Positions 1 to 46,050 of a stretch of 64,000 nt of DNA are shown here, piece after piece; position 1 is the first letter of the stretch, and every line of letters starts with the position of its first letter. A program made the translations under genes and the position numbers. Below the pieces are notes generated by a model. It saw nothing but the letters and a program-made list of their open reading frames with translations, was not told where the DNA came from and ran no database searches. The DNA is from Armatimonadota bacterium (lineage in GTDB: Bacteria; Armatimonadota; Fimbriimonadia; Fimbriimonadales; Fimbriimonadaceae): positions 1 through 64,000 of the forward strand of contig DAIDHV010000008.1 in NCBI GenBank assembly GCA_027451905.1, in the 5' to 3' direction.

Positions 1-430
1 TTCACATTGAACCCACCAGATCCATTGCGAGACACGTCCGCCATCATGTCACCATCCATTATAGCCATGAGCCGACACTGGTGATCCCGCCGCAGGGGAA
101 TGAGCGAAGCGAGTCGGGATTGCCGTGGGCGTCGTAGATGGGATAGACCACAACTGTATTCCCACCTGAAGTCTTGGAAATGGCATCAATGCCACGAGCC
201 CCGATTGCGTAATCGGTCACAGCCGGATTCGTCCCCAAATCCACATCTTCCATGCTTCCCGATTTCATTTCCCTCGTTTCACTCGGCGGGACGGGGCGAT
301 CAAAACTGTTCTTTGTTCGCATGGATTCGCCCCGCATCCTGCCATCATACCTATACAGGGTAGTTGAGCAGTGATAGACTTGGACACTCTCATGTCGAAG
401 CCATGGATGGCGGAGATCCCGCCGGAGCAA
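1..430 (-). pseudogene. Degenerate orphan rhs fragment (core-end segment). Nt 1-50 and ~127-290 are near-identical to 1467-1516 and 1525-1690 of the full rhs gene. It carries two extra in-frame-looking segments and a stop at ~56, and continues past the window start.
   Basis: Direct nucleotide and protein identity to the main Rhs region (TTLYRYDG...YPIYDAHGN...MMADVSRNGSGGFNV). The reading frame is broken by a stop and the N-terminus differs. Confidence 0.7.
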
Positions 431-619: not shown

Positions 620-826
620 TTACTTTTCCTTTCTACCAGCCCTCCCTGCCCCCAATTTGCCCCAAATCACCTGAAGCAAGATGTTTTGCATCGGCATGGT
701 GCAAACAAAGAGGAAGCCATTGAAAGAGTCGAAATGGGCCGCCCCAATGCGAACCAGCAAGACATCAGCCGCGAAAAAAACTGAAAAGATGGATAAAGAC
801 AGCAGAGCTTTTCTGAAGTCGAACAC
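620..826 (-). CDS. Possible small 2-TM membrane protein (68 aa, GTG start 4 nt after the rhs stop). Candidate immunity protein for the Rhs C-terminal tip.
   Basis: The frame stays open immediately downstream of the rhs stop. There are two hydrophobic helices (ALLSLSIFSVFFAADVLLV; FLFVCTMPMQNILLQVIW) and a GGGGA motif 8 nt upstream of the GTG. There is no homology support. Confidence 0.3.
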   Translation of the reverse strand: MFDFRKALLSLSIFSVFFAADVLLVRIGAAHFDSFNGFLFVCTMPMQNILLQVIWGKLGAGRAGRKEK

Positions 827-830
827 CGCT

Positions 831-3800
831 TTAATCCCCTGAATCGATATCATCCAAAAATAATTCTGCTTCAATCTGTCCAGCTTCCGCTGCTGTAGCG
901 TCAACTGCCGTATTGGCGATGTCTTCACTTTCTGCGTTCAGAAGACCGAACGAGGCATTATTTGTAATGGAAGTCAGCATCTTTTCGTAGTCGCCAATAA
1001 ACCTCATATAGGAGCTTACAAAGCCTGCGCCGATGCGTATTCCGCAGGCGCCCACAGCACCTTGAACCACCGCAAATGTGCTCCAGCCAGCTAGCAGACT
1101 TTGCATGCCTAAGGCTACAAGCGCAGAACCTGATCCATCAAATCCCAGAGCGCTCTGAGCCATCCACTGTAGAAGACCAATTATAAAGCACCCTGCCGCC
1201 TGGTTAGGATCGAAGTCCTTGCCGCTGCTGTCCTCCGCATTTGGAGGGCTCGACTGGCAATATGCAAACCAATTACAGGACTGCCTTTTTGGGTCCTCGC
1301 TGATAAACCTACCCGACGTTGGTTCGTAGTATCGGGCGCGCATGTAGATAAGGCCGGATTCATCATCTTGGACGTGACCCAAGTTGGCGCAATAACGTCC
1401 TTTGGGATCGCCGCTTGTCGCGCCGCTTCTTACATTGCCCCAGGCGTCATAAGACCTCTTGTCATTCACATTGAACCCACCAGATCCATTGCGAGACACG
1501 TCCGCCATCATGTTCCCATGGGCGTCATAGATGGGATAGACCACAACCGTATTCCCGCCGGATGTTTTGGAGATAGCATCTATGCCTCTTGCACCGATCG
1601 CATAGTCAGTAATCGCCGGATTGGTCCCCAAATCCACGTCCTCCATGCTCATCTGACCATCGTACCGGTACAAGGTTGTGGAAGAACCATTGGTCTTAGA
1701 AACCCTCATCCCATCTGCACGATACAGGTAATCCCAGGTTCCTGATGTATTGGTTAAGGTTGTCATGCGGTTCAAGCAGTCCCAAGTCATCGACGTCGAC
1801 CCCGTCGTCAGCCGGTTCCCTAAGATATCAGACGTACAACTCACCCCATTGATTGTTATCGGACGATTTAAATTATCACAAACCGAATCGGTTCTATTGC
1901 CAGCCGCGTCGTAACTCCAGTTCTGAATCGCATTGGGCAGACCGTCGCCATAATTGGCACTGGTGAGATAATCAAAGTTAGGATCATAGCCATAGGTCTC
2001 GGTCCAGGTATTTCCACCTTGCCATGAGTTCATGGAACTGGTCTTCAGCCCAAGGTCAGGATCATAGGCACAAGAGTTCTCATAGATCGGGGTGCTGGTG
2101 AAGCTATTCCCATTCCAGTCATCTTGGTAATAGGTGAGATCGGTGGTTCGCCCAGCCCCATCATAGGTGTAGATCGCCCTCATTCGGCTAGAAGCAGGAT
2201 GAGTTCCATCGTAGTAGGTTTGCCCCGTGCTGGGGGTGAACCCTGGCTCGGGAGTCTGGGCAAAACAGGCCTGTTCTACCTGCCCAGCAGAGTTATAGAG
2301 GTAGTCGTACTCTTCTGCGGTCGGGTTGCCATTAGAGTCCAGCCTCGCCATTTTTTGGAATACGCGGTTAACCTTCGGGAATTGACCCACGGAAATGTAG
2401 TCGTAGTATCCCCATGTGGTTGAGCCATTTGGCGTTGTGTAGGTTGCCTCGGTCCTTGAGCCTGAGCTATCGTAGGTGTAGGTATCAGAATAGGTTCCAC
2501 CTGGGTCATTCTCGGTCACCGATTGCACCTGCCCAAGACCTGGACCTGAATTGTAATAGCCAAGGGTTTCAGTGATGCCAGAAAGTCCATCGGTAATAGA
2601 AATGGGTTGCCCATTGGTGATTCCAGCCCCACCGTAGGTGTAGTTCACCAAGTTTTCGCTTAATCCACTATCGATCCGAATTACGCTTAGGATCTTGCCG
2701 TCCGCATCGTAATTTGTTTGAAAGATGTGACCAGCGGCGTCTTGCACTTCATCGGCTTTGCCGTCGCTGGTGTAGCCAAGGGTTTTTTTTATGCGGTTGA
2801 TGCCGCCCTGATCTTCGGTCACTTGGCTTGCCTCACCCCAGCTTCCGTCGTTGTTGGCTCCGTACAGAGTTTGGGTGTGGACATAGGTCCATGGACTTGT
2901 TGATGTGCTTTGCAATTTGTAGACGTCGGTGCATCTGCCATCGCTGTCATAGGCAAACTGAGCACTGTAACCGCCATTCGGTGTGATCTGGTACTTCCAG
3001 TAGTCGCCTGTAGAGGCCCAAGCCGGCGGAGTGATTTGGGTGTTGAGAGAGAAGGCGCCATGGGCATTGTCGTAAACCTGATAAGTTTGTCCCCTGCTTC
3101 CGGCGGCGGCGGTGTTTGGGTAATAGTCGGTGTAGGAATATCGGCAGCCACCATCTGTGGTTTGGCGAACTGCCTTCTGCTGCCAGTATTTGCTTTGATC
3201 CCAATAGGCATAGTCAGTTTCCTTTGTGCTTGTGACATTTTTGACTGAATTCGCAGTCGTCGACTCAGTGACGGTTTGGCTTAATGGATTCCCAGCAAAG
3301 TTGTAGCTTGTAACGGTATCGGTCTCCCCTACATATTGAGGAATCAAAGGGTACAGATACTGGCTCGTGTCGTTTTGGCGGAGCCAATAGGAGAAGTTGT
3401 AATCTGAGTCCTCTGTCAGGTCTTGGGTCTCAATGTTGTAAAACTTATCGCTTGTCACGGAAAACGTCGTCGGGTCCACAAATCCGACATTTGATGGATC
3501 CTGCGAAGTCAACCATGTTCGGACGTCCATGACTCCATTGTTCACGTATCCCGCTGCAATGGCCACGCTATACCACTCCGAAGCTGTGTAGTTATATGGG
3601 TTAATTCCAGCTGGTACCGTGTTCATGTATTCCCAAGCTGCATTCCCACTGCCGCCGCTTTCTGGTCCGAATATTGTAGTGCTTCCGTTGGGAGCATAAA
3701 TGGCATCCACCGTGGGGGCCTCGACTTGGCCGGAATAAGGTAGCACAGTTACATATTGCATAATGTAGGAGATGCTAGTCGTAAGACCCTGCGGATTAGT

Positions 3801-4955
3801 GGTACTCGTCAGGAGGTTTGAGGCAACGTCCGGGGTGCCCTCATTGCCTGCGGCGGCAGAACCGTACCCGTAGTATGTTGTGAGACCAGCTGGGTCAGTG
3901 ACACTTGTCAGAAGATCCCCCGAGTAGCCATAAGAAACGGTTCTGCCGCACCCGTCTGTCACCGAGGAAATGTGGTTGCCAGACCAAGTAAACGAAAGTT
4001 GATGGCCGTTAGGCATCGAAACCTTTATCAGCGGATGCTCGCTTGTGACTCCATCCGACTTCTGGAAACTGACATAATTAGCGCCGTAGTTGTAATTAGT
4101 AACGTTACCCTGGCGGTCTGTGGCTGAAGTCACTTTTAAGACATTGGCGGGATATGGGGTTGCGGTTGGGTTGTTGTATGGCACCGTACCGTTGGGGTAA
4201 CTGCCTTCGGATTGATAGGTATAAGTTGTGCCATCAGGGGTGATGGTCTGATTACTTACAACAACCTGGTAAACAGCCCCATTAAACGTTACAAACTGAT
4301 ACTGAGTGTTATTGACATTGTTGTCCCAGGGAGGAGTGGTAAGCACTCCATCTACATCCCGTTGAATGGTTTCTTGATGGCCACCCGCATCGGTGGCAAC
4401 GACGGCTTGGGTGGGTTGGGCATGGACTCCGGTTGCCATTTCCGCATTTGGGTCAATTTCGGTTGGCGGCCTCTCGCGGATGGCTTTAGGAACGGCTCGA
4501 ACTGGCGCAGAAGGAGATTTTAAGAGTCCACCAGCGGTGTTCCTCACATCGCAACTCAGGGTCCAGCCGAAGCCAAGGGGCCCCTCATCCAAAGAATTCG
4601 AGCTGTAGCTACGCGTCACGTTGACGGGAATTCCGTAGCCGCCTTCAAAGTCTAGGTCGGTAGCCGAGGTAGAATAGTTTCCCGTCATCATGTCTACTCC
4701 CTTATAGATAACATCCCACTTGTTTTGCCCGGCCAGATACGGGCACTGACCAGCCCGACCAACAATCTTTTTTTGCTGAGAAACGCTGAGGACATGGGAT
4801 GCAGGCAACTTGACCTTCTTGGGCCTAATGTAGGGGGCCCTTCGGGGCTGCAAGGGGTTCCTAATAAGACCTGCAATTCCGAATGGAACTGAAGCGTTCA
4901 TCATCAGAAGCGCGGAAAAGACTGCAAATGCACGTTTGAATTTCATTGATGCCAT
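831..4955 (-). CDS. rhs: Rhs/YD-repeat polymorphic toxin (1374 aa) with an N-terminal Sec signal peptide and a C-terminal variable toxin tip (~190 aa, Gly/Ala-rich hydrophobic helices)
   Basis: Signal peptide MASMKFKRAFAVFSALLMMNASVP; FGWTLS N-domain; many YD repeats (YTYDGAGRTTDLTYY, YGYDPNFDY, WSYDAAGNRTD); Rhs core end motif YMRARYYEPTSGRFISEDP followed by a non-conserved tip. Confidence 0.92.
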   Translation of the reverse strand: MASMKFKRAFAVFSALLMMNASVPFGIAGLIRNPLQPRRAPYIRPKKVKLPASHVLSVSQQKKIVGRAGQCPYLAGQNKWDVIYKGVDMMTGNYSTSATDLDFEGGYGIPVNVTRSYSSNSLDEGPLGFGWTLSCDVRNTAGGLLKSPSAPVRAVPKAIRERPPTEIDPNAEMATGVHAQPTQAVVATDAGGHQETIQRDVDGVLTTPPWDNNVNNTQYQFVTFNGAVYQVVVSNQTITPDGTTYTYQSEGSYPNGTVPYNNPTATPYPANVLKVTSATDRQGNVTNYNYGANYVSFQKSDGVTSEHPLIKVSMPNGHQLSFTWSGNHISSVTDGCGRTVSYGYSGDLLTSVTDPAGLTTYYGYGSAAAGNEGTPDVASNLLTSTTNPQGLTTSISYIMQYVTVLPYSGQVEAPTVDAIYAPNGSTTIFGPESGGSGNAAWEYMNTVPAGINPYNYTASEWYSVAIAAGYVNNGVMDVRTWLTSQDPSNVGFVDPTTFSVTSDKFYNIETQDLTEDSDYNFSYWLRQNDTSQYLYPLIPQYVGETDTVTSYNFAGNPLSQTVTESTTANSVKNVTSTKETDYAYWDQSKYWQQKAVRQTTDGGCRYSYTDYYPNTAAAGSRGQTYQVYDNAHGAFSLNTQITPPAWASTGDYWKYQITPNGGYSAQFAYDSDGRCTDVYKLQSTSTSPWTYVHTQTLYGANNDGSWGEASQVTEDQGGINRIKKTLGYTSDGKADEVQDAAGHIFQTNYDADGKILSVIRIDSGLSENLVNYTYGGAGITNGQPISITDGLSGITETLGYYNSGPGLGQVQSVTENDPGGTYSDTYTYDSSGSRTEATYTTPNGSTTWGYYDYISVGQFPKVNRVFQKMARLDSNGNPTAEEYDYLYNSAGQVEQACFAQTPEPGFTPSTGQTYYDGTHPASSRMRAIYTYDGAGRTTDLTYYQDDWNGNSFTSTPIYENSCAYDPDLGLKTSSMNSWQGGNTWTETYGYDPNFDYLTSANYGDGLPNAIQNWSYDAAGNRTDSVCDNLNRPITINGVSCTSDILGNRLTTGSTSMTWDCLNRMTTLTNTSGTWDYLYRADGMRVSKTNGSSTTLYRYDGQMSMEDVDLGTNPAITDYAIGARGIDAISKTSGGNTVVVYPIYDAHGNMMADVSRNGSGGFNVNDKRSYDAWGNVRSGATSGDPKGRYCANLGHVQDDESGLIYMRARYYEPTSGRFISEDPKRQSCNWFAYCQSSPPNAEDSSGKDFDPNQAAGCFIIGLLQWMAQSALGFDGSGSALVALGMQSLLAGWSTFAVVQGAVGACGIRIGAGFVSSYMRFIGDYEKMLTSITNNASFGLLNAESEDIANTAVDATAAEAGQIEAELFLDDIDSGD

Positions 4956-4988
4956 GGTTGACTCTTAAGATTTGATAGGCTGTTTTTG

Positions 4989-5966
4989 CTAGTTGAGCGA
5001 TAAAGGTGTAAAAACGATGACGTTGGCGATAAAGTTCGACCGGGGTTTAGTCGGCAACTTCCATTGGCTTGTCGATTTTGTAAGTGGGTCATAGACTGCG
5101 ATGCTCGAGCCAGAATTCGTACAAATAACGACAAAGTGGTCTGGGGTGCTGAGGATTGCTGGCGTTGAAATATGGCTAAAGTCCTGAGAGTTCAAGGCGA
5201 GGGCATAGGATTTGACCCCAAGTTTCTCGAAGTACTCCCGGATTGCAAGCAACGAGACTCCGGCGTCTGTCCGCTTGCAGCCCTTCGCGATTTGGGCAAT
5301 TGTTTGAGGCTTGCGCCCCATCAATTGGAGGACCTTTGCCACGCACTCTGGACCGCACAAGCTGGTTTGGTAACGAATGAACTTGGTTTGGATGGCAAGA
5401 TCGTGCTGGTAGAGACTGACGTCTGCAGGGTTAATCGGGGCGCCGTCTTTAAGTCCTCCTTGAAGCCTTCTCAACCTGTCAAAACATGCCTTGCATAGTG
5501 GGCTCTTGGGGCGGGACTTCATAAAATCTCGGAATGCGGATATGGCTTGAGTCTTCTTGCCTTCTGCAACCAAGCACACATCAGCCTGGTATAGGGCTTG
5601 GTCGGATAAGCTTCCAAAGTCGGCTGAGGAAACACCGGTGCCTTTGTATGACTTTTCGGCAGCCAGAAAGGTCTTTCTCGCCGCTTCGTAGGTGCCTTTC
5701 GTAGGCTTAGCGGTGTGGTCTTTGGTGACCTCCAGAAAGCCAAGGTGCAGCTGAGCCTGAGTCACCAGATCTTGCATTGTCTTGCTGGGATTCTTTCGAT
5801 TATTGGCAATGAATTGCTGGAGGGCGGCTGGCGTGTTCGGCACTGCCCTCGATTTCGTTCGGCTGGCATGGTCGGCAGGGCTATAATGCCTCAGCGCAAA
5901 GAAGATGCCACCGGCGAGCATCACAAGAGTGCCGCTCCAGATCGCGATTCGAGTTGAACGTTTCAT
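4989..5966 (-). CDS. Membrane-anchored protein with a C-terminal papain-like peptidase C39-like domain
   Basis: N-terminal TM (IAIWSGTLVMLAGGIFFAL). C-terminal domain has Cys (SLCGPECVAKVLQLMG), His (PDHFVVI) and Asp (VYDP) in C39 order. 33 nt upstream of rhs on the same strand. Confidence 0.6.
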   Translation of the reverse strand: MKRSTRIAIWSGTLVMLAGGIFFALRHYSPADHASRTKSRAVPNTPAALQQFIANNRKNPSKTMQDLVTQAQLHLGFLEVTKDHTAKPTKGTYEAARKTFLAAEKSYKGTGVSSADFGSLSDQALYQADVCLVAEGKKTQAISAFRDFMKSRPKSPLCKACFDRLRRLQGGLKDGAPINPADVSLYQHDLAIQTKFIRYQTSLCGPECVAKVLQLMGRKPQTIAQIAKGCKRTDAGVSLLAIREYFEKLGVKSYALALNSQDFSHISTPAILSTPDHFVVICTNSGSSIAVYDPLTKSTSQWKLPTKPRSNFIANVIVFTPLSLN

Positions 5967-7354
5967 CCCTGAGTTCCAGTGGACCAGGCATTGGTCTCCG
6001 TTTCATCTACAATCCAAAGCCTTGGAATGCCGTCCGTTGTTGGCAAACCCGCATTTGGGAACTGGCTTTGATAATAGGCGTCTTCAAAGTACTGCCAGCC
6101 AACGAAGTTGTTAGAGAGCTGAGTTGCTTCATTTGCGAGTGCAACAGAGATGTTGACAGTGCCTTGAGGTGGCTGTGGCATTGTCATGTTGAGGTACTCA
6201 AGTGGTGGTGATGGGGCGGTACCGTTGATGGTAAGGTCAGTACTTTCCACCACGCCAGTTCCCGTTATGTTCCAGGCGTTTGCCCAAGTCGCGTTTCCAG
6301 GCGCCACCGCATAGTTTGGATCGGTGGCGGGAATGTAGTATCCGGCAATATCCATGGCCGCATTGTAGTTGGCATTGGGAGGTCCAAGCCTCGTGAGGGA
6401 AAGGTCAACCCAAATGGGTTTTACATACGAAATGTTCGCGCCGTAAAGTTGAAGGCGACTCGTTCCGCTCAAATCATTTGTTTGGACGAATGGGGCATTT
6501 CCAACAAATGAACCGCCGGTGTATAGCCAGTTGTAGAAGTTGATATAGTTTGCGGGGGCGTTCGCGTCGCCAGGGAGTTCTCCCGCGAGGTCAGGTTGTC
6601 CGTAGGTTTTCCTGGTGTCGATGCTTGTTGAATTTAAATTGAACCGGTTGCAGACAATTGTTCCTTCAGAGTATTGGGTTCCATTAAATAGCGTGTCGAC
6701 CTTGTTGCCGTTAGAGTCATAGTAATAGGTGTCTCCTACATCTTGGACCCCCAGGATGAGGTGATACGTGCCGCTTGACGAACCTGCTATTCGGTTTGTC
6801 AACGTATCGCCATTATTGACAATATAGCCACGAACATAGTAGTTCTGGCCAGTTTTTTGGTCATTGATGGTGGTCTCCGTGCTGGTCTCGCCTTGGTTAC
6901 TCGTTGTGAAATAGTACTCACCGGAGTTTGCGTCGATCGATGTGCAGGTCGAGTAAAGAGTTGCTGTGTAGTTGTCGTCTCTGTATTCCTGCGGGTTTGT
7001 GCCGGGAACGGCCACTCCGGAATCGTTGGCAGGAATGTTTTGTATCGTAAATTGCTGCCGAAAGGCGTGAAATTTTTCGCTTTCGTAACTCGTGGTACCC
7101 GAAGCTTCCTGGACGCCAACTAGCTCCACGTCTGGCCATACTTGGTAGCCAGTGGTTGAGCCGGTGGTGGAACCCGTCGAGGAGCCAGTCGAACTTGAGC
7201 TTGTCCCGCTCGAGCCCGTAGTTTGTGGCGGCGGCAGGACCCCCGTTGAACTTGCAATGCGATCGGAGCGGCCAAGCGCCCCAGAGACTAAGATAATCGC
7301 CACAAAAAAGGCAACGACTATTGAAATAATTTTCGCTCTCATTCTTGTCCTCAA
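5963..7354 (-). CDS. Secreted or membrane-anchored hypothetical protein with an S/T/G-rich linker and a Tyr/Asn/Gly-rich beta-rich domain
   Basis: N-terminal TM/signal (IISIVVAFFVAIILVSGALG); low-complexity STG repeats; 4-nt overlap with the downstream C39-like gene, so the same operon as rhs. Confidence 0.6.
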   Translation of the reverse strand: MRTRMRAKIISIVVAFFVAIILVSGALGRSDRIASSTGVLPPPQTTGSSGTSSSSTGSSTGSTTGSTTGYQVWPDVELVGVQEASGTTSYESEKFHAFRQQFTIQNIPANDSGVAVPGTNPQEYRDDNYTATLYSTCTSIDANSGEYYFTTSNQGETSTETTINDQKTGQNYYVRGYIVNNGDTLTNRIAGSSSGTYHLILGVQDVGDTYYYDSNGNKVDTLFNGTQYSEGTIVCNRFNLNSTSIDTRKTYGQPDLAGELPGDANAPANYINFYNWLYTGGSFVGNAPFVQTNDLSGTSRLQLYGANISYVKPIWVDLSLTRLGPPNANYNAAMDIAGYYIPATDPNYAVAPGNATWANAWNITGTGVVESTDLTINGTAPSPPLEYLNMTMPQPPQGTVNISVALANEATQLSNNFVGWQYFEDAYYQSQFPNAGLPTTDGIPRLWIVDETETNAWSTGTQG

Positions 7355-10131: not shown

Positions 10132-12513
10132 CTATTTTTGTGTGATGGTCGGTGAAAAGACAGCAATTTTACTAATTTTCATCATTTTGCCTTCCGAATC
10201 TTCGATTCGAATGAACCTAGCTGTAACAATAGGCCCATAGTACCTTACGACAAAGTTCCCATCTTCCGGTTGGCTTCGGTTTGCAATGGTCCAAGCAAGG
10301 TCTGGTTCTGAGCTCCAATCGATAGCGTTTTGCACGGTCTCCCCCGTGTTGTAAACCAACACCTTAAATGGCCCCGCAGAAGGCTTACCGGTAAAGACAA
10401 TGTCAATTTCACCCAAGCGGCGGTCTCGATGCAAATCCCACTCTGCCCACTGGTTAGAAGGACCGAGTTGGATGGAGGAGGGATCCGAGGCAGCATCGGC
10501 CTGAGTGACAGCAGCGTTTTCTGCATAGTTTTGAGACTGATCTATAGGTTGGCTTGGCAGGGCAAAATGAAGATCACAAAACGCGACGGTTTGGTCTCCA
10601 CGGTAAGCGGATTCTAGCATCGAACTTGCCGTCATAAGTGCCCAGCCAGAAGAGTTGCCAAGGACCATGTGCACCGCAAACGAGCCGTCTCCTTCTAAGC
10701 GATTGGTGCCAAACGGATTCCGCCCCGAACCGCCAGAAGACATTGGCTGATTAGGCAGCAGAGCACTGCCAGATTGATCAGTCTTTAAGGAAAATTCTTT
10801 GGTTGGGCTAACCTTTCCATCAACAACCCGATAAAAATCCATTTCTGAGTTTTTGAGGGTAAAGCCATTGGCTCCGTACGCCCTTACCAAGATGAGGTGA
10901 GGAAATTGGGAAGCGGCGCTTGGCTGGATGGGATTCCTCTGAGAAGTTGGTTTGGAAACAAGGTCGTTGAGCTGTCCTACCGTTACAAGGCCAAGAGGAC
11001 CATAAGGCGAGGACGGCACCGCAAGCAGGTAAGGAACTTGGTAAGCCTGCTGCGGCAGCTGCAAACTTGGCGGAAGTTGCCCTTCATAGCGACGATCCCC
11101 GCCTAAGAGTCCGCCATACCAGTAGGTTCCTCCCCCATAAAATCCGTTCTTCTGATCCAGTGGCAAAGGACTATCGGCAATCTGCTCCTTGCCAAAATCG
11201 GTGGCTCCTGCTGCTTCCAATGACATTTGCATGAGCTTCTTCAATTGATGCGGATCCTCTAAGCTGCCACTTTTGAGGGGCAGAACCAGATCACCTGTTC
11301 CCGGCTGTCCCAGGTCTGGTTGAAGTTGAATCCGCTCCATGCAGCCAGCAGGGCTAAACGAAAATCGACTGCGATCAAGAGCCTTATTGCAAAGGGAGCT
11401 TAGCTTAAGAAGCAGCTTGCTTGCTTCCTTTTTTGGCAGGTCTGATTGCACGGGAATGGCAAATCCATTAGGGAAGAAAACCGCACTTCCATATTCGGCA
11501 GACGCTTGATTGCCTCCCAACCAGAAATTGATTTTCCCTGCCCTTGGGTCCTGCGGGTTAGGCAATGCGCAAGGCAAATCTGCCTTAAAGGTTGCCCCTG
11601 CCGATAAGGAAGGAACGTTTGCAACGGGCATGGAAATCCCATCCATGAGTTGGTGCAGTGCGCACGGCGAGGAAGGTCCCTTGCCTAGATTGCTCACTTC
11701 AACGGTCAGAGCGTCAGAACCCGGTGCCCTTGAGACACCAACGATCTCTAGCTTAGCGGCAGAAATTGTCGGCTCGGTTTCCTTCACATAGGTAATTTCT
11801 AACTGAGGCTGAGCAGAGCCATCTTCACTGGATGCAAATTCACAGGGGCCAGAAAATTGAAGAGCAAAGCCAAAATTTAGCCACGGCTTCTCCACAAATT
11901 TCTGAATCTGAGGGGCCAAGCCTTCGACAACAAAATTCCCGGTGCCAGTCGGATGAGCCTTCACCGGCAAGACCTGAATATCTTGAGGACCCATTGCCCC
12001 TGGGGTTGACCATTTGGCACCCTTGATTCCAAATTCCGATGTTAACCAGGTTGCTCCGCCAATAGGAGCCCTCGAAACCGCAAGGCTTGGTGGTTTGACG
12101 GGAGCCGTAGCGGGGCCAAGGTGGGGCAAATTAAGGGTCAAAGCCGGCCCTTCACCCCACGGCCTGAGCAGTTCACCAAAAGTTGTTAATTGAGGGGTGT
12201 CTGGAGATGACTGAGTGAAGATAATTTTGGCGTCAAGGACCTTGGCATGAGCACCAAGCAACCTTTGAAGCTGACCAAAACGAATGAGAATGGTCTTTCC
12301 GGTACCACCAGATAGAGAATATAACCCCCCTTCAGACTTGGTAGGCTCCGCGTTATCAAGGGTTGTATCCTCAACGTCGCAACCCATCAATGGATCGTTG
12401 ACCGCAACATACTTCCCTCCCGCTTCGGCGACCTCGATTCTCCCACGCTGATAGCGCAATTGGAAGGTCGGTTGGTTTTGGTTGTGGCGAAGGGCAAGAA
12501 TGCCGCAGATCAT
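10132..12513 (-). CDS. Large hypothetical protein with a C-terminal F5/8 type C (discoidin)-like carbohydrate-binding domain
   Basis: C-terminal ...AEWDLHRDRRLGEIDIV...FVVRYYGPIVTARFIRI resembles the discoidin fold. The N-terminal MICG is not a genuine Ntn amidotransferase start. Confidence 0.5.
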   Translation of the reverse strand: MICGILALRHNQNQPTFQLRYQRGRIEVAEAGGKYVAVNDPLMGCDVEDTTLDNAEPTKSEGGLYSLSGGTGKTILIRFGQLQRLLGAHAKVLDAKIIFTQSSPDTPQLTTFGELLRPWGEGPALTLNLPHLGPATAPVKPPSLAVSRAPIGGATWLTSEFGIKGAKWSTPGAMGPQDIQVLPVKAHPTGTGNFVVEGLAPQIQKFVEKPWLNFGFALQFSGPCEFASSEDGSAQPQLEITYVKETEPTISAAKLEIVGVSRAPGSDALTVEVSNLGKGPSSPCALHQLMDGISMPVANVPSLSAGATFKADLPCALPNPQDPRAGKINFWLGGNQASAEYGSAVFFPNGFAIPVQSDLPKKEASKLLLKLSSLCNKALDRSRFSFSPAGCMERIQLQPDLGQPGTGDLVLPLKSGSLEDPHQLKKLMQMSLEAAGATDFGKEQIADSPLPLDQKNGFYGGGTYWYGGLLGGDRRYEGQLPPSLQLPQQAYQVPYLLAVPSSPYGPLGLVTVGQLNDLVSKPTSQRNPIQPSAASQFPHLILVRAYGANGFTLKNSEMDFYRVVDGKVSPTKEFSLKTDQSGSALLPNQPMSSGGSGRNPFGTNRLEGDGSFAVHMVLGNSSGWALMTASSMLESAYRGDQTVAFCDLHFALPSQPIDQSQNYAENAAVTQADAASDPSSIQLGPSNQWAEWDLHRDRRLGEIDIVFTGKPSAGPFKVLVYNTGETVQNAIDWSSEPDLAWTIANRSQPEDGNFVVRYYGPIVTARFIRIEDSEGKMMKISKIAVFSPTITQK

Positions 12514-32843: not shown

Positions 32844-35282
32844 ATGAACAAAAGCAAAGAAGCTTGTATCTCCCTTGTGAAACGTTTCGCAAAATGGTTT
32901 CTGCCTCTCTTCTTGCTGACTTTGGCATGTCTTTCTCAGGCTGATATAACGTTAAGATTTACCAGTTGGGATGGCGATGTCTCTCTGCGAGTTTTGCGCA
33001 AACTCTGTGACCAATTTGAGGCCCAGAATCCGGGAGTCAAGATTGATTTAGAGCAAATTCCCGATTACAACGTCTACCACCAAAAAATGATAGTGGAGTA
33101 CGCGGCTAATGCGGCTCCCGACGTGGCGATGATGGATCCTGGCCACTTCCAGTTTTTGGCAGAACGAGGGGCGCTTATGCCTCTCAATCAGTTCTTCAGC
33201 CAAATCCCCGGATTCAACATCAAAGACTACTATCCAAGAATCGTTGCTGCCCACACCCTCAAAGGTCAGTTGTACGTTCTTCCCCGCGATATTGCACCCG
33301 AAGGGCTGATTTACTACAACAAGGCAGAATTCAAGGCAGCCGGCATTCCGTATCCGGACGGATCATGGACTTGGGATTTTCATGAAAGACCATGGCTGAA
33401 AAGCAAAGACTTTTTGTGGGTCATGCACAAGCTGACCCTCTTTAACAAGAATGGGTCTGTTAAGCAATACGGATATACGCCCTCTGGTGATCAGCTTCTT
33501 CTCAACGCGCTTGCCTATGGCTGCGGGCTGCGCTACACCGATAACCCTCAGTATCCAACCAAGGTTTTGCCCAACATCAATGGCTGGATCAAGGTTGGTG
33601 ACTTGCTCCACGACATTGAGCAAAACAAGCATTGGGCACCGAGTCAGCTAGACGTTTCCAGTAATTTTCAATCGGCTGCCTATCAACTCTTTGTAAGAGG
33701 TCAAACCGCCATGTATCAAGATGGCATCTGGCAAGTTCCCCAGATCAGAAGGGACATGCCACCGGGAAGCAAGGACTTTTTTGATTGGGACATTGCTCCA
33801 TTCCCTCGCTATGTGGGAGCGCCAGTCATGAGGGGCCCGACCGGGGGTTCTGGCTACGCCATGTTCTCCACTTGCAAGCACAAACGAATGGCTTGGAAGT
33901 TTATGACGTTTATGGCAGGGCCGGTAGGCATGCGGGCGATGGCAGAAGCAGGAATCGCCCAGCCAGCCATCCGCAAAGTTGCCCTGTCTCACGCTTGGAT
34001 TCCGGGACCAAACACTCCCTATGCCCAGCTTTGGCCCCACAACCGTATCATCACCGATCAAGAAGTAGCCAATGTTGTTTTTGATCCAACATCTCCCTAC
34101 TGGCAAGATGCCTCTAGCTACCTTAATGCGGAACTGACCACATTCTTTAACGGCATTATCAGCGCAAAAACCGCCTTTACGGTGGGACGGCAGCAAAGCC
34201 AAGATCGTTTGGATTACTTGAGGCATCAAGCTAATCTCCCCAGATTTCCTTGGGCAGCGGGAATTTTAGTGGGACTGGCTCTTGTTGCCGGCCTTTGCTT
34301 TTTTGTTTACTGGCCAGAAAGGGGCAAAAAATATACCACGCGGCAAAAGTCAGAAAACCGATCTGCCTATAAATTTCTTACTCTGTGGATCATCGGACTG
34401 GTTGGTCTGACGCTTGGCCCTATGGTTTTGTCTCTGCTGATGAGTGTCACCAGTTGGGACATGATCACTCCTGCCCGATGGCGTGGGGTTGGTAATTTCC
34501 AAGAAGCCTTTACTGCCGACCCCCGATTTTGGGTTTCCCTCAAGGTGACCTTTATTTACACCGCAGTAAGGGTGCCTCTTAGCCTTGTTTTCTCTTTTGT
34601 CTTAGCCATGCTGCTCAACGTCAAAGTGCGCGGGATTCCTCTTTATCGAGCTGCCTTTTACATTCCGTCTTTGGCTTCTGGAGTTGCATCCTCTTTGATT
34701 TGGATGCGTATATTTTCCCCTAACAATGGGCTGCTCAATAGCTTTTTGTATAGCAAATGGATCAACGGCACCCTCCATATCGGAGACTGGCTCAGCAATT
34801 TAGTTGGCACTCCTCACACCCCTGTAAACTGGATTGGGTCCGAGCAAACCGCCCTAAGCGCCTTTATCATCATGTCTTTGTGGGGGGTTGGTGGCTCAAC
34901 AATTATCCTTCTTGCCGGACTGCAAGGCGTCCCCGATATGTACTATGAAGCGGCGACGGTCGATGGCGCCTCTCCGTTCAAGAAGATGAAGGCGATCACC
35001 CTGCCGATGATCACCCCCGCTCTCTTTTTCACGCTCATTACGGGGTTCATTGCCGCTTTTCAGAACTTTACCGACGTGTATGTCGTGACATCGGGCGGAG
35101 GAGGTCCCAACAACGCAACCATGCTTTATATGCTTAATCTCTATAACATGGCATTTGCCAATCATCGGTTTGGATATGCGGCAGCCCTGGGCTGGATGCT
35201 CTTTGCCATTATCCTGATTGTCACGTTAATTCAATTTCAAACCAGCAAGTGGGTTTATTACGAAGCGGATGTGAAGAAATAA
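32844..35282 (+). CDS. Fused sugar ABC transporter: periplasmic solute-binding domain (family 1) joined through an extra TM helix to a MalF/UgpA-type permease
   Basis: Signal peptide with AXA site (SQA/D). ~430-aa SBP-like region, then TM (AGILVGLALVAGLCFFVYW), a basic cytoplasmic loop and six permease TMs with the EAA-like loop region. Confidence 0.75.
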   Translation: MNKSKEACISLVKRFAKWFLPLFLLTLACLSQADITLRFTSWDGDVSLRVLRKLCDQFEAQNPGVKIDLEQIPDYNVYHQKMIVEYAANAAPDVAMMDPGHFQFLAERGALMPLNQFFSQIPGFNIKDYYPRIVAAHTLKGQLYVLPRDIAPEGLIYYNKAEFKAAGIPYPDGSWTWDFHERPWLKSKDFLWVMHKLTLFNKNGSVKQYGYTPSGDQLLLNALAYGCGLRYTDNPQYPTKVLPNINGWIKVGDLLHDIEQNKHWAPSQLDVSSNFQSAAYQLFVRGQTAMYQDGIWQVPQIRRDMPPGSKDFFDWDIAPFPRYVGAPVMRGPTGGSGYAMFSTCKHKRMAWKFMTFMAGPVGMRAMAEAGIAQPAIRKVALSHAWIPGPNTPYAQLWPHNRIITDQEVANVVFDPTSPYWQDASSYLNAELTTFFNGIISAKTAFTVGRQQSQDRLDYLRHQANLPRFPWAAGILVGLALVAGLCFFVYWPERGKKYTTRQKSENRSAYKFLTLWIIGLVGLTLGPMVLSLLMSVTSWDMITPARWRGVGNFQEAFTADPRFWVSLKVTFIYTAVRVPLSLVFSFVLAMLLNVKVRGIPLYRAAFYIPSLASGVASSLIWMRIFSPNNGLLNSFLYSKWINGTLHIGDWLSNLVGTPHTPVNWIGSEQTALSAFIIMSLWGVGGSTIILLAGLQGVPDMYYEAATVDGASPFKKMKAITLPMITPALFFTLITGFIAAFQNFTDVYVVTSGGGGPNNATMLYMLNLYNMAFANHRFGYAAALGWMLFAIILIVTLIQFQTSKWVYYEADVKK

Positions 35283-37819: not shown

Positions 37820-39034
37820 ATGAAAATGTCATTGAAGACAACCGCCCTCGTAACCGTGGGTGGCATAAGCCTGCTTAGCGCTGTTTTCGTTTGGAGCAAA
37901 AGACCCACGCCCCTTTCTTACCCCCGAGTCAAAGCCAATCTTGCCCCGATCGAAAGCGGATTTGGTCACTTCTCCACCTTGTTCTTAAAAGGCGTTCATC
38001 CGCCTAAGGATAAAAACTTTGCCTACTCTCCGATTTCTATGGAGATGGCACTCCTGATGCTGGGCCCCGGCCTTTCTCTTAAAGATCAGCAAACATTAGG
38101 CGCCTCGGTTGGCATGAGCCCTCAGGATGTGAGCAACTCTCAGGCTCCTCTTGCCATTGCCGGCTCTCTCTACCAACGCAATGCAATCATGGCTAATTCG
38201 GTTTGGGTAGGTCCGAAGTTTTCTCTCTATCGGGATTATCAAAGACAAGTCCAAGCTTTGGACGGCGCCGAAGCCCATTCTCTGACTGGATTGGGAACAG
38301 GAGGTGCCGACCAAATCAACAACTGGGTGGCACTCAACACCAAAAACCGGATTCAAAAGCTGTTTGACTCTCTTCGCACTGGTACCTGTATGGTTCTTGT
38401 CAACGCCCTCACGTTTGATGGCAAGTGGCAACGTCCCTTTGATGCCTTGAAGACCGCAAAAGGTTCTTGGACAACCCAAAACTCTCACCTGACGGCAATG
38501 ATGATGCATTCCGATGAAAACATTCCTCTTGCTCAATATCCAACCTATACGGTAGGAAGGCTCAATTACAAAGACAATGACATGTGCATGGACATGATCC
38601 TGCCAAAGGGGCTTTCGGACCCTTGGCAAGCTCTGCTAAGTGCCAAAACAACTCTCTTAACCGGAACGCCCCATTGGAATGCAAAAAGCACGAGCGTGGA
38701 GATGCCGAAGTTTGAATTTAACCTCCGCCAAAATATGAACCCAGTGATGAACTCCATTGGACTTGGCTCCTTTTTAAATGAAATGCCACAACAAAGAATG
38801 GTGAAAACCACTTTGGGCGTGTCTGTTGATCAAGTAGAACAAGCGATTTGGGTAAAAATTGATGAAGAAGGAACCAAAGCCGCCGCAGCTACGGGGGTTG
38901 GATGCGAGGCGTCGAGCATCATGGTGCAGCCCCATCTCAATCCGTTTAACGTAGACCATCCGTTTGCGTTTGTGATTAGAGACCTCAAGACGGGTGCAAT
39001 TCTTTTTGCGGGGGCCGTTTATCAGCCGGAATAA
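37820..39034 (+). CDS. Serpin (serine protease inhibitor) with signal/anchor
   Basis: Reactive-centre hinge EEGTKAAAATGV; C-terminal FNVDHPFAFVIRD; NALTFDGKWQRPF. Confidence 0.85.
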   Translation: MKMSLKTTALVTVGGISLLSAVFVWSKRPTPLSYPRVKANLAPIESGFGHFSTLFLKGVHPPKDKNFAYSPISMEMALLMLGPGLSLKDQQTLGASVGMSPQDVSNSQAPLAIAGSLYQRNAIMANSVWVGPKFSLYRDYQRQVQALDGAEAHSLTGLGTGGADQINNWVALNTKNRIQKLFDSLRTGTCMVLVNALTFDGKWQRPFDALKTAKGSWTTQNSHLTAMMMHSDENIPLAQYPTYTVGRLNYKDNDMCMDMILPKGLSDPWQALLSAKTTLLTGTPHWNAKSTSVEMPKFEFNLRQNMNPVMNSIGLGSFLNEMPQQRMVKTTLGVSVDQVEQAIWVKIDEEGTKAAAATGVGCEASSIMVQPHLNPFNVDHPFAFVIRDLKTGAILFAGAVYQPE

Positions 39035-42112: not shown

Positions 42113-43483
42113 CTAAGAGAAACCCAATTCGATCACTCGCTTTTTGACCAGTTCACGAAATGCACCCGAAGCCGCGTCCACCTGGTCATCATGGGCGCCG
42201 GCAGTTGGAAAAAGGGCCAACTCATTAAGAAAATCTAGGTTCCATGGTGCTCGGACGAGCCGAACATGACCCGCTTCTGCCTGGGCACTCAGAGGCTTGG
42301 CCCTTGCCGTTTTGTCTCCCGAGGAGCGCACGCCTCGAAAATCAAATCCACAAAGGATTTCCCGCCGATACCGATCAACCAAACCAACTCCGCTGCTCCC
42401 TGGCTCTTGCTCCATCCTAACGCTGACCATTTCCCCATCCAGCTGGGCAGTTTGCCTGACCAATTTCTCGACCGTCAAAGGTGTTTCCCGGACGCGGCGC
42501 ACATCTTCAATGGTCAGCCGTCCATCTTGCCCTCGGTTCATTAGCACTCCCACCGTGTAGTCGGGATCGGTGCCTTTTGTTGCCTTTGTGGCAGCGAGGT
42601 CCCAAAATCGCACCCGCTGACCGCCAGGAGGCGGCAGCTCTACAATGCCAAACCATTCCGGCTTGAATAGATTTCCCCCTTCTACCACGTCCCAATCTCC
42701 GTCTAGCAGCCGCTTGCGATCTACCAAATTGAGGGCCCTTAAGTTGGCCAAATAGCCCGGATCTCTTGCCATTAAAATGGCATTGTCATAGATATTAGAG
42801 CAGATAAACGCCACACTTTTACGATTCGGGGACGGCTGGTTGTGCCAAACCGAGACGCCTGCTTCTCTTTCTAAATAGCGCATCTCGCCGCTTGAAGCGT
42901 GAAGAGGATGAGAAGGATCAAGCCACGGGGCTAGGAAAGATTTGACCCAGCTTGTGGCATCGGGGTTGGTTGTTGCTCGAACATACGGCCGGATTCCACA
43001 CGTGGATCGATTGCGGCTAAGAAGATAAAAAAATTGAGATTCGGTAAAGTGGGTCAGCTCATCAAGACCAAGGCCGCAGATTTGAGCACCCTGAAATTGA
43101 AGCTTGTCTTTTTCGTATTGCAAGGAATCGAACCGGATTTTTGATCCCGCCGGAAACTCCCACTCCATCTTGATCTCCTTTCCCTTGGCGCCAAGAAGAG
43201 GGTACAGATTTTGGGATTCATCCCATAATCCGCCTTCCATCCGAACTTGCTCTGAAGTGCGGCGAAAAATCACCGCGCCAAAGGCAGGATTCTTGACGTG
43301 ACGCAGAAACTCTAACAACAAGGCGTAGGTTTTGCCGCCCCCCGCCGCACCGCCATAAATGGCAATGTCGGCTGGGGAGCTTAGAAAGGTTGTTTGAGGA
43401 CCTGGCTGAGGCCCGATTTTGACCATCACTTTTTTGGGGGGAATGGCTTTGCCAATGCAGCCAACGGATGGAGGAGGATTCAA
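42113..43483 (-). CDS. terL: Phage terminase large subunit
   Basis: Walker A GGAAGGGKT, Walker B LDELTHF, C-terminal RNaseH-like nuclease with HDDQVDA. Confidence 0.85.
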   Translation of the reverse strand: MNPPPSVGCIGKAIPPKKVMVKIGPQPGPQTTFLSSPADIAIYGGAAGGGKTYALLLEFLRHVKNPAFGAVIFRRTSEQVRMEGGLWDESQNLYPLLGAKGKEIKMEWEFPAGSKIRFDSLQYEKDKLQFQGAQICGLGLDELTHFTESQFFYLLSRNRSTCGIRPYVRATTNPDATSWVKSFLAPWLDPSHPLHASSGEMRYLEREAGVSVWHNQPSPNRKSVAFICSNIYDNAILMARDPGYLANLRALNLVDRKRLLDGDWDVVEGGNLFKPEWFGIVELPPPGGQRVRFWDLAATKATKGTDPDYTVGVLMNRGQDGRLTIEDVRRVRETPLTVEKLVRQTAQLDGEMVSVRMEQEPGSSGVGLVDRYRREILCGFDFRGVRSSGDKTARAKPLSAQAEAGHVRLVRAPWNLDFLNELALFPTAGAHDDQVDAASGAFRELVKKRVIELGFS

Positions 43484-43776
43484 GGAGAAGATCGGCCATT
43501 GTCGGGCAGAACAATAACAACTCTGCTTTCCATGCCAACTTCTGCCGATGTGTGAACGGTAGCAGCGGGCTTTCCAAAGGCTCGGTTTAGTAAATATTCG
43601 ATTGCCAGCCGATCAGGGGGACGCGTAAACACCGCTTCACCCGATTCATCAAAAACTCTGATGCCATCGGCAAGCTCCATCATCCTCTCCACAAGGTCGG
43701 GCACCCTTGGCAAGATTCTGCCTACCGCACTGTCGGCTGCTTTTTGAGCAGATGGCTTTTTGGTGCCTACAGCCAT
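43480..43776 (-). CDS. Small protein translationally coupled to terL (possible terminase small subunit or helper)
   Basis: 4-nt overlap with terL; size and position only. Confidence 0.35.
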   Translation of the reverse strand: MAVGTKKPSAQKAADSAVGRILPRVPDLVERMMELADGIRVFDESGEAVFTRPPDRLAIEYLLNRAFGKPAATVHTSAEVGMESRVVIVLPDNGRSSP

Positions 43777-43961
43777 CCCGTAAGCAGCACGCCCCGCTCA
43801 TCAAAAAGAACCCTAGCCCCTGCGGGAACCACATCATTGGAAGACTGCACCGAAAATGTCTTTTGGTCCAGACCGTAATTAAGGACGATGGTGCGGTTTA
43901 GCCTGCCAAACGTGATGCCAAAGGCGCGAAATTTGATATTTAAATTTATGTGAAAACTCAT
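43767..43961 (-). CDS. Small hypothetical protein (65 aa) in the prophage module
   Basis: ORF with ATG preceded by an AT-rich promoter-like region. Confidence 0.25.
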   Translation of the reverse strand: MSFHINLNIKFRAFGITFGRLNRTIVLNYGLDQKTFSVQSSNDVVPAGARVLFDERGVLLTGWL

Positions 43962-44206
43962 ATTTTCTGACGAATTGAAGATTTTTTGGTCATTTAGTCC
44001 CGAACTTAGAGAACATGGAATGAAATTTGAAAGATTTGTCGTACAATAATAAAAGACATTGTTGTCGTGTAAAGTAACGACAAACCTAGCTTGGAACATC
44101 GGAGACATTCGCAGCAGCAAAATTATTTCAATATCATTTGCAAGTTATTCTGCCCGTAGTACTAGTGGTACAGCGGGCTTTTTCTTTGATCGGGACCAAT
44201 TTGCGT

Positions 44207-44392
44207 TTAAGAAGCTGGAGGGTTGAACCGAAATAACTTCAATCCAACCACTCCGCTCAGCAAAGCTGCTATTGCTTGCCCGCAGGTGGGCCACCGGTTA
44301 GAGGCAAAAATGGGGGTGAGGGCGGCAAGGTAAGAGCCAAGAAAGGCTGCAATATATTTGGCAACCAAGGGTCCAGTTAGTTTTGAGTTCAT
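44207..44392 (-). CDS. Small 2-TM membrane protein (holin-like)
   Basis: 61 aa with two hydrophobic helices; sits within the lysis cassette. Confidence 0.4.
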   Translation of the reverse strand: MNSKLTGPLVAKYIAAFLGSYLAALTPIFASNRWPTCGQAIAALLSGVVGLKLFRFNPPAS

Positions 44393-44480
44393 CGAGATTC
44401 TTTGGGGGTTAAGGGGGGTTGGATTTGGAAGTCTTAAGGATTTTCAGTTCCAAGCACAGCGGCAAAACGGGGATGAGGTG

Positions 44481-44774
44481 TTAGGGTTTTAGGGTGCGGC
44501 TTTCGATGAGGCGATCCAGTTTGGCTTCAATCCGATCCAAGGTTCGACCTTGGTTGCTCACGTGGGTTTCCGCCGCCGTCAGACGGTTATCAAGCCTGTC
44601 TAGCCTCTCGCGGACCAGACGGTGCCTCTCCTCTGACACCTTGGAGGCGGCATCCACTTCCTTGATCTGATCTCGGATCGACTCGTTGGCACCCTTGTAC
44701 TTGCCGCCAAACCACAGGGCGCCTCCAGTGAACAAAACAATCGGCCAAATGGCAGATATCCATCCAGGATTCAC
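44481..44774 (-). CDS. N-terminal TM plus coiled-coil protein (holin/spanin-like lysis accessory)
   Basis: TM WISAIWPIVLFTGGALWF followed by a charged coiled-coil; lies between the endolysin and the holin-like gene. Confidence 0.4.
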   Translation of the reverse strand: MNPGWISAIWPIVLFTGGALWFGGKYKGANESIRDQIKEVDAASKVSEERHRLVRERLDRLDNRLTAAETHVSNQGRTLDRIEAKLDRLIESRTLKP

Positions 44775-44783
44775 TTTTCTGGC

Positions 44784-45948: not shown

Positions 45949-46013
45949 GGCGCAAGTTTGGATAGGTTGAAAAGCAATCACAATTACTAAATAGTATCTT
46001 TTTGTCTTATATG

Positions 46014-46044
46014 TTGACATTTTAGGCTTACATTTAGATACAAT
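46014..46044 (+). promoter_or_regulatory. Sigma-70-like promoter (TTGACA ... TACAAT) for the repressor gene, inside the divergent sigma/repressor control region
   Basis: TTGACA at 46014-46019 and TACAAT at 46039-46044; spacing is somewhat long. An alternative -10 is possible. Confidence 0.4.
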
Positions 46045-46050
46045 AAGTTA

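Follow-up and report, generated by a model that had tools for sequence, protein, structure and literature searches.

Positions 831 to 7354 of the window, the 64-kb stretch (64,000 nucleotides) of contig DAIDHV010000008.1 from an Armatimonadota bacterium (assembly GCA_027451905.1) that was analysed here at its full length, hold a cassette of three co-oriented minus-strand open reading frames (ORFs) in the order A, B, Rhs. Gene A encodes a predicted secreted protein with a domain of its own, gene B a membrane-anchored peptidase of the C39 type, and the third gene an Rhs polymorphic toxin. A small ORF that overlaps the end of the toxin gene is a candidate for immunity. The coordinates, re-derived from the window, are:

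5963..7354, minus strand: gene A, secreted accessory protein; ORF, with a homologue directly upstream of B in about 21 loci
4989..5966, minus strand: gene B, membrane-anchored TPR and C39 (double-glycine-type) cysteine peptidase, 325 residues; ORF, Pfam match and structural model
831..4955, minus strand: Rhs polymorphic toxin, 1374 residues; ORF, Pfam and TIGR03696 matches
620..853, minus strand: candidate immunity gene, 77 residues from the ATG at 853; overlaps the Rhs stop by 23 nucleotides

A and B overlap by 4 nucleotides (ATGA), and a 33-nucleotide gap separates B from Rhs. These values reproduce exactly the arrangement and sizes given in the original prediction, a note made from the sequence alone. 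Gene A encodes 463 residues if translation begins at the TTG at 7354 and 459 residues from the ATG at 7342; the NCBI-derived database protein P0006, which is 100% identical to A, begins at ATG 7342 and has 459 residues.

Loci around homologues of B were drawn from assemblies, GTDB genomes and JGI metagenomes. Downstream of B lies a DUF6531 Rhs gene (18 of 18 distinct loci with sequence there), and upstream lies an A-family gene (all of the approximately 21 loci with sequence there). In ten loci, the identity of the upstream gene was confirmed with a hidden Markov model (HMM) of the C-terminal domain of A (E 2e-47 to 3e-86). The flanks vary by locus and include cytochrome/Nrf genes, a glycogen phosphorylase, a copper ATPase, the mur operon and a WD40 gene. 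In the window, the surroundings are housekeeping genes, among them a mannose-1-phosphate guanylyltransferase/phosphomannomutase fusion, lgt, an argB-like gene, tyrS, aconitase, men genes and a GT9 heptosyltransferase. As the A-B-Rhs order is invariant while the flanks differ, the three genes are a self-contained accessory cassette specific to Armatimonadota rather than a housekeeping neighbourhood. This bears out the earlier suggestion that they form a functional unit. The original prediction had also considered that A and B might prove to be housekeeping genes in relatives lacking rhs; the opposite was found, with A- and B-family genes seen only together with a DUF6531 Rhs gene (about 20 loci). 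That A and B are unrelated neighbours brought together by chance is accordingly hardly credible: the order never varies across about 20 loci whose flanks are unrelated, A and B are translationally coupled through the 4-nucleotide overlap, and neither family was met in any other context.

When B was used alone as the query, only four relatives were found; a B-family profile built from a 15-sequence alignment gave 67 matches. Sixty-five matches of at most 407 residues, a few of them fragments, score at E <= 3e-74 and all carry the C39 Pfam domain. Three shorter partial proteins follow at 1e-57 to 5e-43, and the next match is far off at 8e-4. By these scores, the B family is tight and isolated. 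The matches in the GTDB species set are all metagenome-assembled genomes of Armatimonadota (4 of 4), the two named NCBI members are Fimbriimonadaceae, and every named source is an Armatimonadota. Members of this phylum are generally regarded as diderm, and the GT9 heptosyltransferase of the window is the other basis for placing the cassette in a diderm context.

Protein B divides into an anchor, a helical domain and a peptidase domain:

5892..5948, minus strand: N-terminal transmembrane anchor, residues 7-25; 19-residue apolar run, crude Hessa-scale insertion free energy (dG) -0.3
5463..5831, minus strand: helical TPR-like domain, residues 46-168; AlphaFold model
5007..5429, minus strand: C39 peptidase domain, residues 180-320; Pfam and model
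5355-5357, 5136-5138 and 5088-5090, minus strand: catalytic residues Cys204, His277 and Asp293, respectively; alignment

The earlier description of B as a C39-like membrane protein with a Cys-His-Asp arrangement is upheld. Residues 203-299 match Peptidase_C39 (PF03412, E 7.8e-11), and Cys204, His277 and Asp293 do not vary among 15 members, although these share only 33-44% identity. The canonical oxyanion Gln at -6 is not conserved in the family. In the AlphaFold model (mean predicted local distance difference test score, pLDDT, 76; 80-94 across most of residues 41-320), an N-terminal helix is followed by a helical repeat domain and by an alpha/beta domain in which Cys204 starts a helix. Within the anchor, residues 16-26 are helical at very low confidence (pLDDT ~28-29). 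Among structural neighbours, the double-glycine leader peptidases rank best, and the TPR domain resembles periplasmic YbgF/CpoB and the Sec-associated YfgM. Judged from match and alignment, B is a genuine C39-type peptidase with an intact triad. As the triad is invariant at 33-44% identity, the enzyme is very probably active. B is also a stand-alone protein, of 306-354 residues in the 15 aligned full-length members, with no ABC transporter fused to it and none conserved in the approximately 20 loci.

A candidate self-processing or pseudo-substrate site in B, the sequence RLxRLNGG before the C39 domain, fitted the hydrophobic positions -15, -12, -7 and -4 and the GG in the first four sequences. 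It was set aside, as the wider family has NGK, NHG, NGD, NDG or NNG in place of GG; a helix cap is more likely. At locus L020 (7827-9240) and at L021, the C39 domain of the B gene is split over two frames, with DHYFAILE in another frame; this may be a frameshifted pseudogene or an assembly error, and was seen in two contigs.

The N-terminal region of the Rhs protein carries the features that bear most directly on its processing:

4869..4955, minus strand: signal-peptide-like N-terminus, residues 1-29, with the c-region motif N-x-[SAT]-x-P-x-G; alignments
4755..4868, minus strand: propeptide, residues 30-67, basic, ending in the motif LSVSQQKKIVGR; alignments, regular expression and scoring matrix
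4755-4790, minus strand: leader-like motif LSVSQQKKIVGR, residues 56-67; proposed C39 cleavage after G66-R67

For the signal-peptide calls, here and for A, the basis is a set of simple heuristics (hydrophobicity and charge) together with conservation among the homologues. In the Rhs N-terminus, an n-region with basic residues leads into a short apolar run (7-12 residues) and then into a polar c-region with N-x-[SAT]-x-P-x-G. Its crude insertion energy (median +3.7, as compared to +0.35 for the B anchor) and its layout resemble those of a signal peptide and not of a transmembrane helix; a transmembrane anchor at this position was rejected on the same grounds (approximately +3.7; apolar run 7-12). 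Export of a pre-folded cocoon by the Tat system was likewise discarded, there being no twin-arginine motif in the Rhs n-regions. A signal-peptidase site is not obvious, and a basic region comes after the signal-like start. The N-x-[SAT]-x-P-x-G motif itself (residues 20-26, 4878-4898, and homologues) is conserved far beyond what is usual for signal peptides and may be a recognition element.

Between the signal-like start and the body of the protein lies a propeptide, 37-55 residues long in the family and mostly basic, which ends in S[RKH]xL[ST]xx[EQ]xxx[LIM]xG[KR]xG[EQ][NC]PY in the family alignment. The core of this motif, L[ST]xx[EQ]xxx[LIM]xG[KR], is present in all 15 distinct Rhs N-termini collected, and in L011 by alignment; an example from L001 is LSGKEMRTLQGK. 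The stretch L-S-x-x-E-M-x-x-L-x-G agrees with the double-glycine leader consensus LSxxELxxIxGG at -12, -11, -8, -7, -4 and -2. The regular expression has one match only in all window ORFs of at least 100 residues, and the motif is absent from 36 of 36 A proteins. A position-specific scoring matrix, which was built from 13 double-glycine leaders known from the literature and is better taken as a pointer than as a curated test, places the Rhs site 1st of 29,786 12-mers from the six-frame ORFs of the window without column -1, and 3rd with it. With the same matrix, 13 of 15 homologues have their top-scoring N-terminal 12-mer at the homologous site. The sole NCBIfam model that touches this stretch is the type-2 lantibiotic leader TIGR03893, matched weakly in two homologues (E 0.09 and 0.23) over leader positions 13-29 of the model. 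What is new in the toxin is this leader-like motif conserved across the Rhs proteins of the cassette; its place beside a C39 peptidase suggests an undescribed maturation of a giant secreted toxin.

The remainder of the Rhs protein has the build of a polymorphic toxin:

4542..4697, minus strand: DUF6531 N-terminal plug domain, residues 87-138; PF20148, E 5.7e-11
1221..1451, minus strand: Rhs-associated core and C-terminal plug, residues 1169-1245; TIGR03696, E 1.1e-15
1218-1247, minus strand: putative C-terminal cleavage motif PPNAEDSSGK, ending at residue 1246; sequence
834..1217, minus strand: C-terminal toxin domain, residues 1247-1374 (128 residues), Gly/Ala-rich and hydrophobic with an acidic tail; sequence
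1..430, minus strand: orphan or degenerate Rhs core fragment that runs off the window; repeat of the 3' end of the Rhs core

A further match is to RHS_repeat (PF05593, E 8.4e-6). The canonical motif for C-terminal autoproteolysis is PxxxxDPxG[LWF] (bioRxiv 10.1101/2024.02.26.582050); in PPNAEDSSGK the P, D and G are kept, DP is replaced by DS, and P1 is Lys. The family motif is PxxxxDxxG[KRLC]. In most members (the window, L001, L005, L007, L011, L014, L025 and L026), Lys, Arg or Cys precedes the predicted C-terminal autocleavage bond, and this D..G[KRC] echoes the G-[KR] of the N-terminal leader-like motif.

The C-terminal toxin domains of the family, 109-142 residues long, are polymorphic while the cores align; the majority are hydrophobic and rich in Gly/Ala, with a few soluble, helical ones. 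In other loci, too, the Rhs stop is overlapped or closely trailed by small ORFs, and toxins and downstream ORFs co-vary: hydrophobic toxins accompany ORFs with multiple transmembrane segments, and soluble toxins accompany soluble ORFs. In the window, the candidate immunity protein has one hydrophobic segment by Kyte-Doolittle count and two by eye, and the toxin is probably membrane-active. Neither the C-terminal domains nor the immunity ORF has a Pfam match at E <= 0.1.

Orphan modules of core and toxin were found at L001, at L026 and in the window. In the latter, bases 1-55 are 96% identical to 1465-1519 and bases 120-256 are 82% identical to 1513-1649. A 64-nucleotide insertion between both repeat blocks breaks the frame, and any toxin domain of this fragment would lie beyond the window edge. 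At L012 (8957-12101), a second very long Rhs frame (>1048 residues) lies downstream of the first Rhs gene with its immunity gene. This unusually large orphan module opens directly with the DUF6531 plug and has neither signal nor propeptide. At L005 (approximately 10700-10800), the Rhs frame shifts near YFPLYDA and the end of the core is in another frame, suggesting a frameshift or a sequencing error.

Protein A consists of a signal peptide, a linker and a conserved C-terminal domain:

7277..7354, minus strand: signal peptide, residues 1-26: basic n-region, then a long h-region, site SGA|L; heuristic
7148..7258, minus strand: Ser/Thr/Gly-rich linker, residues 33-69; sequence, with homologues replacing or extending it with fn3 repeats
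5966..6652, minus strand: conserved C-terminal domain, residues 235-463, the family core; a new domain, mostly beta; profile search and alignment

A had been described as a secreted Ser/Thr-rich protein, and the signal peptide found by heuristic together with the Ser/Thr/Gly-rich residues 33-69 agrees with this. The homologues have canonical AXA sites, such as AHA|R, STA|Q and ALA|Q. Their N-termini vary: the signal peptide is followed by a Ser/Thr/Gly-rich linker and one to four fn3 domains, and one member has a module resembling a carbohydrate-binding module. Such an architecture is typical of extracytoplasmic proteins that carry a functional domain on a stalk, and A would fit this type. A profile search of the full library returned 194 representative clusters (50% identity), with the conserved part at profile positions of approximately 225-450. 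This part corresponds to the C-terminal 220-230 residues (~230 residues) and has as invariant positions, in domain numbering, R14, D29, N31, D60, S62, R66, W123, W127, E175, W186 and Y188. In HMM searches, the domain has no significant match in Pfam, NCBIfam, PHROGs or the PDB, and an AlphaFold model built with five sequences is unusable (pLDDT 38). A likeness to phage baseplate proteins was dropped when its three weak matches (E ~0.5) vanished with a better alignment of the C-terminal domain. Lipoprotein anchoring was also rejected, for A as for B and Rhs, there being no lipobox cysteine in the family sequences. By analogy with MafA, which serves MafB, A probably docks, displays or helps to deliver the mature toxin.

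The reading judged most likely, with a probability of about 0.5, is Sec export followed by cleavage of the Rhs propeptide in trans by membrane-anchored B, within a four-gene cassette of A, B, Rhs and immunity protein. The process would likely involve: export of A and Rhs by Sec, in the latter case through its short signal-peptide-like N-terminus; retention or tethering of a basic Rhs propeptide of about 40-55 residues that ends in the helix-plus-glycine motif; and recognition of the propeptide helix by B, anchored in the cytoplasmic membrane so that its TPR and C39 domains face outward. B would then cut at or near G66-R67, approximately 18-20 residues upstream of the DUF6531 plug. This cut would release or mature the Rhs cocoon in trans, the equivalent of what type VI secretion system (T6SS) Rhs effectors achieve by N-terminal autoproteolysis at Lys|Pro. 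Next, the aspartyl-protease plug of Rhs would free the 128-residue C-terminal toxin to act on membranes, the small hydrophobic downstream protein would neutralise the toxin in the producer, and A would be the docking or delivery partner of the mature toxin. A more specific version is offered tentatively, at somewhat short of even odds: that a stand-alone membrane C39 peptidase, outside any ABC transporter, matures a Sec-exported Rhs protein of 150 kDa by cutting a leader of the bacteriocin type at Gly-Lys/Arg, and that A, through its novel domain, docks or delivers the toxin.

Several observations weigh against this scheme. The 15 residues after the helix of B hold more Lys/Arg than the N-tail in approximately 20 of 21 homologues (hand count); by the positive-inside rule the topology is ambiguous, and the charge count would favour a cytoplasmic C39 domain, as in the peptidase-containing ATP-binding cassette transporters (PCATs). 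The net charge of the Rhs propeptide, +2 to +10, is unfavourable directly behind a Sec signal in diderms. At position -1, the motif has K, R, Q, A, S or M, mostly Lys/Arg; characterised C39 peptidases require Gly/Ala/Ser at this position, and cleavage at the Rhs motif would need an altered S1 pocket. The scoring matrix that singles out the site derives from an uncurated set of 13 leaders, as noted above. Neither a transporter or ABC gene nor a secretin or Omp85 gene is conserved beside the cassette, and passage across the outer membrane is not evident from its gene content. A minor point in favour concerns the autocleavage site of Tse5, where the chain is severed between K47 and P48, at the beginning of the DUF6531 plug (PMC10684867): the position of this autocleavage Pro is occupied by Gly in every member of the present family (KGV, DGV, EGI or NGI; Gly86 in the window Rhs). 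The missing Pro was tried as specific evidence for processing in trans and is weakened by a Bacillota Rhs-like protein that also lacks it. The original prediction had raised an undescribed route for export or processing of the toxin. The processing half gains support from the leader-like motif in the propeptide; the export half does not.

The main alternative takes up the topology of B. Here, the C39 domain would be cytoplasmic, as in PCAT/ComA proteins, and would remove the whole 67-residue leader before or during a non-Sec export, the hydrophobic N-terminus being a leader element bound by the TPR domain. The positive-inside count favours a C-in orientation in most homologues, all characterised double-glycine peptidases, the structural neighbours of B among them, act in the cytoplasm, and the Rhs propeptide is basic. 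Long double-glycine leaders of the Nif11/NHLP type, of 60-80 residues, are also known. Such a mechanism is nonetheless unlikely. It would be left without an exporter, as neither an ABC transporter nor any other translocon is conserved near the cassette, and a cytoplasmic cut would remove the sole export-like signal of a protein of approximately 150 kDa. Moreover, the n/h/c arrangement of a Sec signal is present at the Rhs N-terminus, the partner A is clearly extracytoplasmic, and the short N-tail of B is itself basic (MKR...), which disfavours its translocation.

Two further proposals would place B outside the cytoplasm, or leave its location aside, and give it another task. B could be a periplasmic cell-wall or isopeptide hydrolase that opens peptidoglycan locally for the Rhs cocoon or for A, making the leader-like motif coincidental. 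This appears more doubtful still: the best double-glycine-leader match in the window is the adjoining Rhs gene, and a Pfam scan found no peptidoglycan-binding domain. Alternatively, A and B could form only an anchor or adhesion platform for the toxin, in the manner of MafA, with the C39 fold serving as a peptide-binding module like the C39-like domain of HlyB. HlyB-type domains lack the catalytic Cys. In B, the invariance of Cys204, His277 and Asp293 across 15 diverged members argues for retained catalysis, and a role in binding alone is the least favoured of these assignments. On the ranking of structural matches and the invariant triad, both wall-hydrolase and pure binding roles are thus less likely than propeptide cleavage by B.

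Among the closest known systems are the Sec-dependent Rhs toxins of the WapA type and the "T2SS/Sec-dependent" class of polymorphic toxins (T2SS, type II secretion system; PMC3482391). Shared features are the signal peptide (here signal-like), the RHS/YD cocoon, the core, the polymorphic toxin, the immunity gene and the orphan modules. In contrast to these toxins, the cassette adds two invariably linked genes, for the secreted novel-domain protein A and the membrane C39 protein B, as well as a propeptide that is double-glycine-like. No cell-wall-binding repeats were detected in the cassette Rhs, and the hosts are Armatimonadota. The original prediction had taken signal-peptide Rhs proteins to be typical of monoderms; this premise is incorrect, as the signal-peptide route combined with RHS repeats is entered as occurring "in all bacteria" by Zhang et al. 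2012 (PMC3482391, Table 1). In the same survey, C39 domains occur in polymorphic toxins only as C-terminal toxin modules, Tox-PLC39; a conserved secreted upstream partner (MafA with MafB) and toxin-releasing membrane peptidases (PrsW fusions) are both described there (PMC3482391).

The peptidases of PCATs and of ABC transporter maturation and secretion (AMS) proteins (ComA, LahT, PCAT1 and LanT) share with B the fold, the Cys-His-Asp triad and the Pfam family, and the Rhs motif, as their putative substrate, agrees with LSxxELxxIxGG at -12, -11, -8, -4 and -2. Leaders cut by such peptidases end in GG, GA or GS and have hydrophobic residues at -4, -7 and -12. They differ in that B is neither fused to nor beside an ABC transporter, is anchored by one N-terminal helix, and has a TPR domain preceding C39. 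The candidate substrate also differs, being approximately 150 kDa with a Sec-type signal and having mostly Lys/Arg, not Gly/Ala/Ser, at -1.

With the T6SS Rhs effectors (Tse5, RhsA, Rhs1 and TseI), the cassette Rhs has in common the DUF6531 plug, the cocoon, a putative C-terminal aspartyl-protease plug and, as proposed here, the loss of an N-terminal segment. In Tse5, too, the C-terminal toxin is membrane-active (PMC10684867), as is probable for the toxin of the window. Unlike these effectors, the cassette protein has Gly for the autocleavage Pro, would rely on a separate protease in trans, and has PxxxxDxxG[KRLC] rather than PxxxxDPxG[LWF]. No PAAR, VgrG, prePAAR or Eag chaperone was found in Rhs, in the Pfam-scanned window ORFs or in related loci, and no Pfam match to marks of Tc toxins (the SpvB domain or a beta-propeller TcB partner) occurs in Rhs or its neighbours. 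The earlier statement that this Rhs gene stands outside a PAAR/T6SS or TcB/TcC context therefore holds, the Pfam scans showing no such domains or linkage.

MafA/MafB of Neisseria and the PrsW-type toxins are conceptual relatives only, without sequence relationship to the cassette. The former share a lineage-restricted, conserved N-terminal region of the toxin and a conserved, non-polymorphic secreted protein (here A) encoded upstream; the latter share a membrane-associated peptidase dedicated to toxin release, the role proposed for B. Unlike MafA, A has a plain signal peptide and no lipobox. Unlike PrsW, B is a separate C39 protein and not an N-terminal multi-pass fusion. The full-text literature searched on Rhs with C39 or double-glycine, on DUF6531 and on Armatimonadota Rhs yielded no description of an A-B-Rhs cassette, and the two strictly linked accessory genes appear from these comparisons to be previously undescribed.

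Rhs toxins are usually classed by exporter: T6SS, type VII secretion system (T7SS), Tc or plain Sec. The maturation, release and diderm-envelope passage of Sec-exported Rhs cocoons are essentially uncharted, and the cassette provides a three-protein system that is defined, conserved and open to testing. Should B indeed cleave the Rhs propeptide, the reach of C39 leader peptidases would widen from small bacteriocins and ribosomally synthesized and post-translationally modified peptides (RiPPs), which are handled in the cytoplasm, to giant extracytoplasmic toxins. The C39 family would gain a new class of substrate and a new cellular location, and its new specificity for Gly-Lys/Arg could become a processing tool. 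N-terminal cleavage, familiar from the T6SS Rhs effectors, would also prove transferable to a separate, dedicated enzyme, in a new, phylum-specific mode of trafficking and processing for polymorphic toxins. Independently of this, family A represents a new, widespread domain (194 clusters at 50% identity).

Elsewhere in the window, no T6SS, T2SS, Omp85 or PCAT genes occur among the ORFs scanned. Rfam and tRNA scans of the 64 kb were empty, and a promoter and terminator scan gave no excess over shuffled expectation. Two genes upstream of the cassette, a 793-residue ORF (10132-12513, minus strand) has no Pfam match and is not kept beside the cassette in other loci. A small cluster resembling a prophage remnant (42113-46788) contains a lone large terminase (42113-43483), a CHAP-domain protein (44784-45383), an extracytoplasmic function (ECF)-type sigma factor (45328-46020) and a LexA/CI-like repressor with helix-turn-helix and S24 domains (46051-46788). 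A type I restriction-modification system (54386-61170) comprises HsdR (54386-57457), HsdS (58925-59578) and HsdM (59575-61170), with a DUF5655 gene (57454-58359) inserted within it. On the plus strand lie a bacterial serpin (37820-39034; Pfam Serpin, E 9.5e-63) and, at 32844-35282, an 812-residue protein in which an extracellular solute-binding protein is fused to an ABC permease domain.

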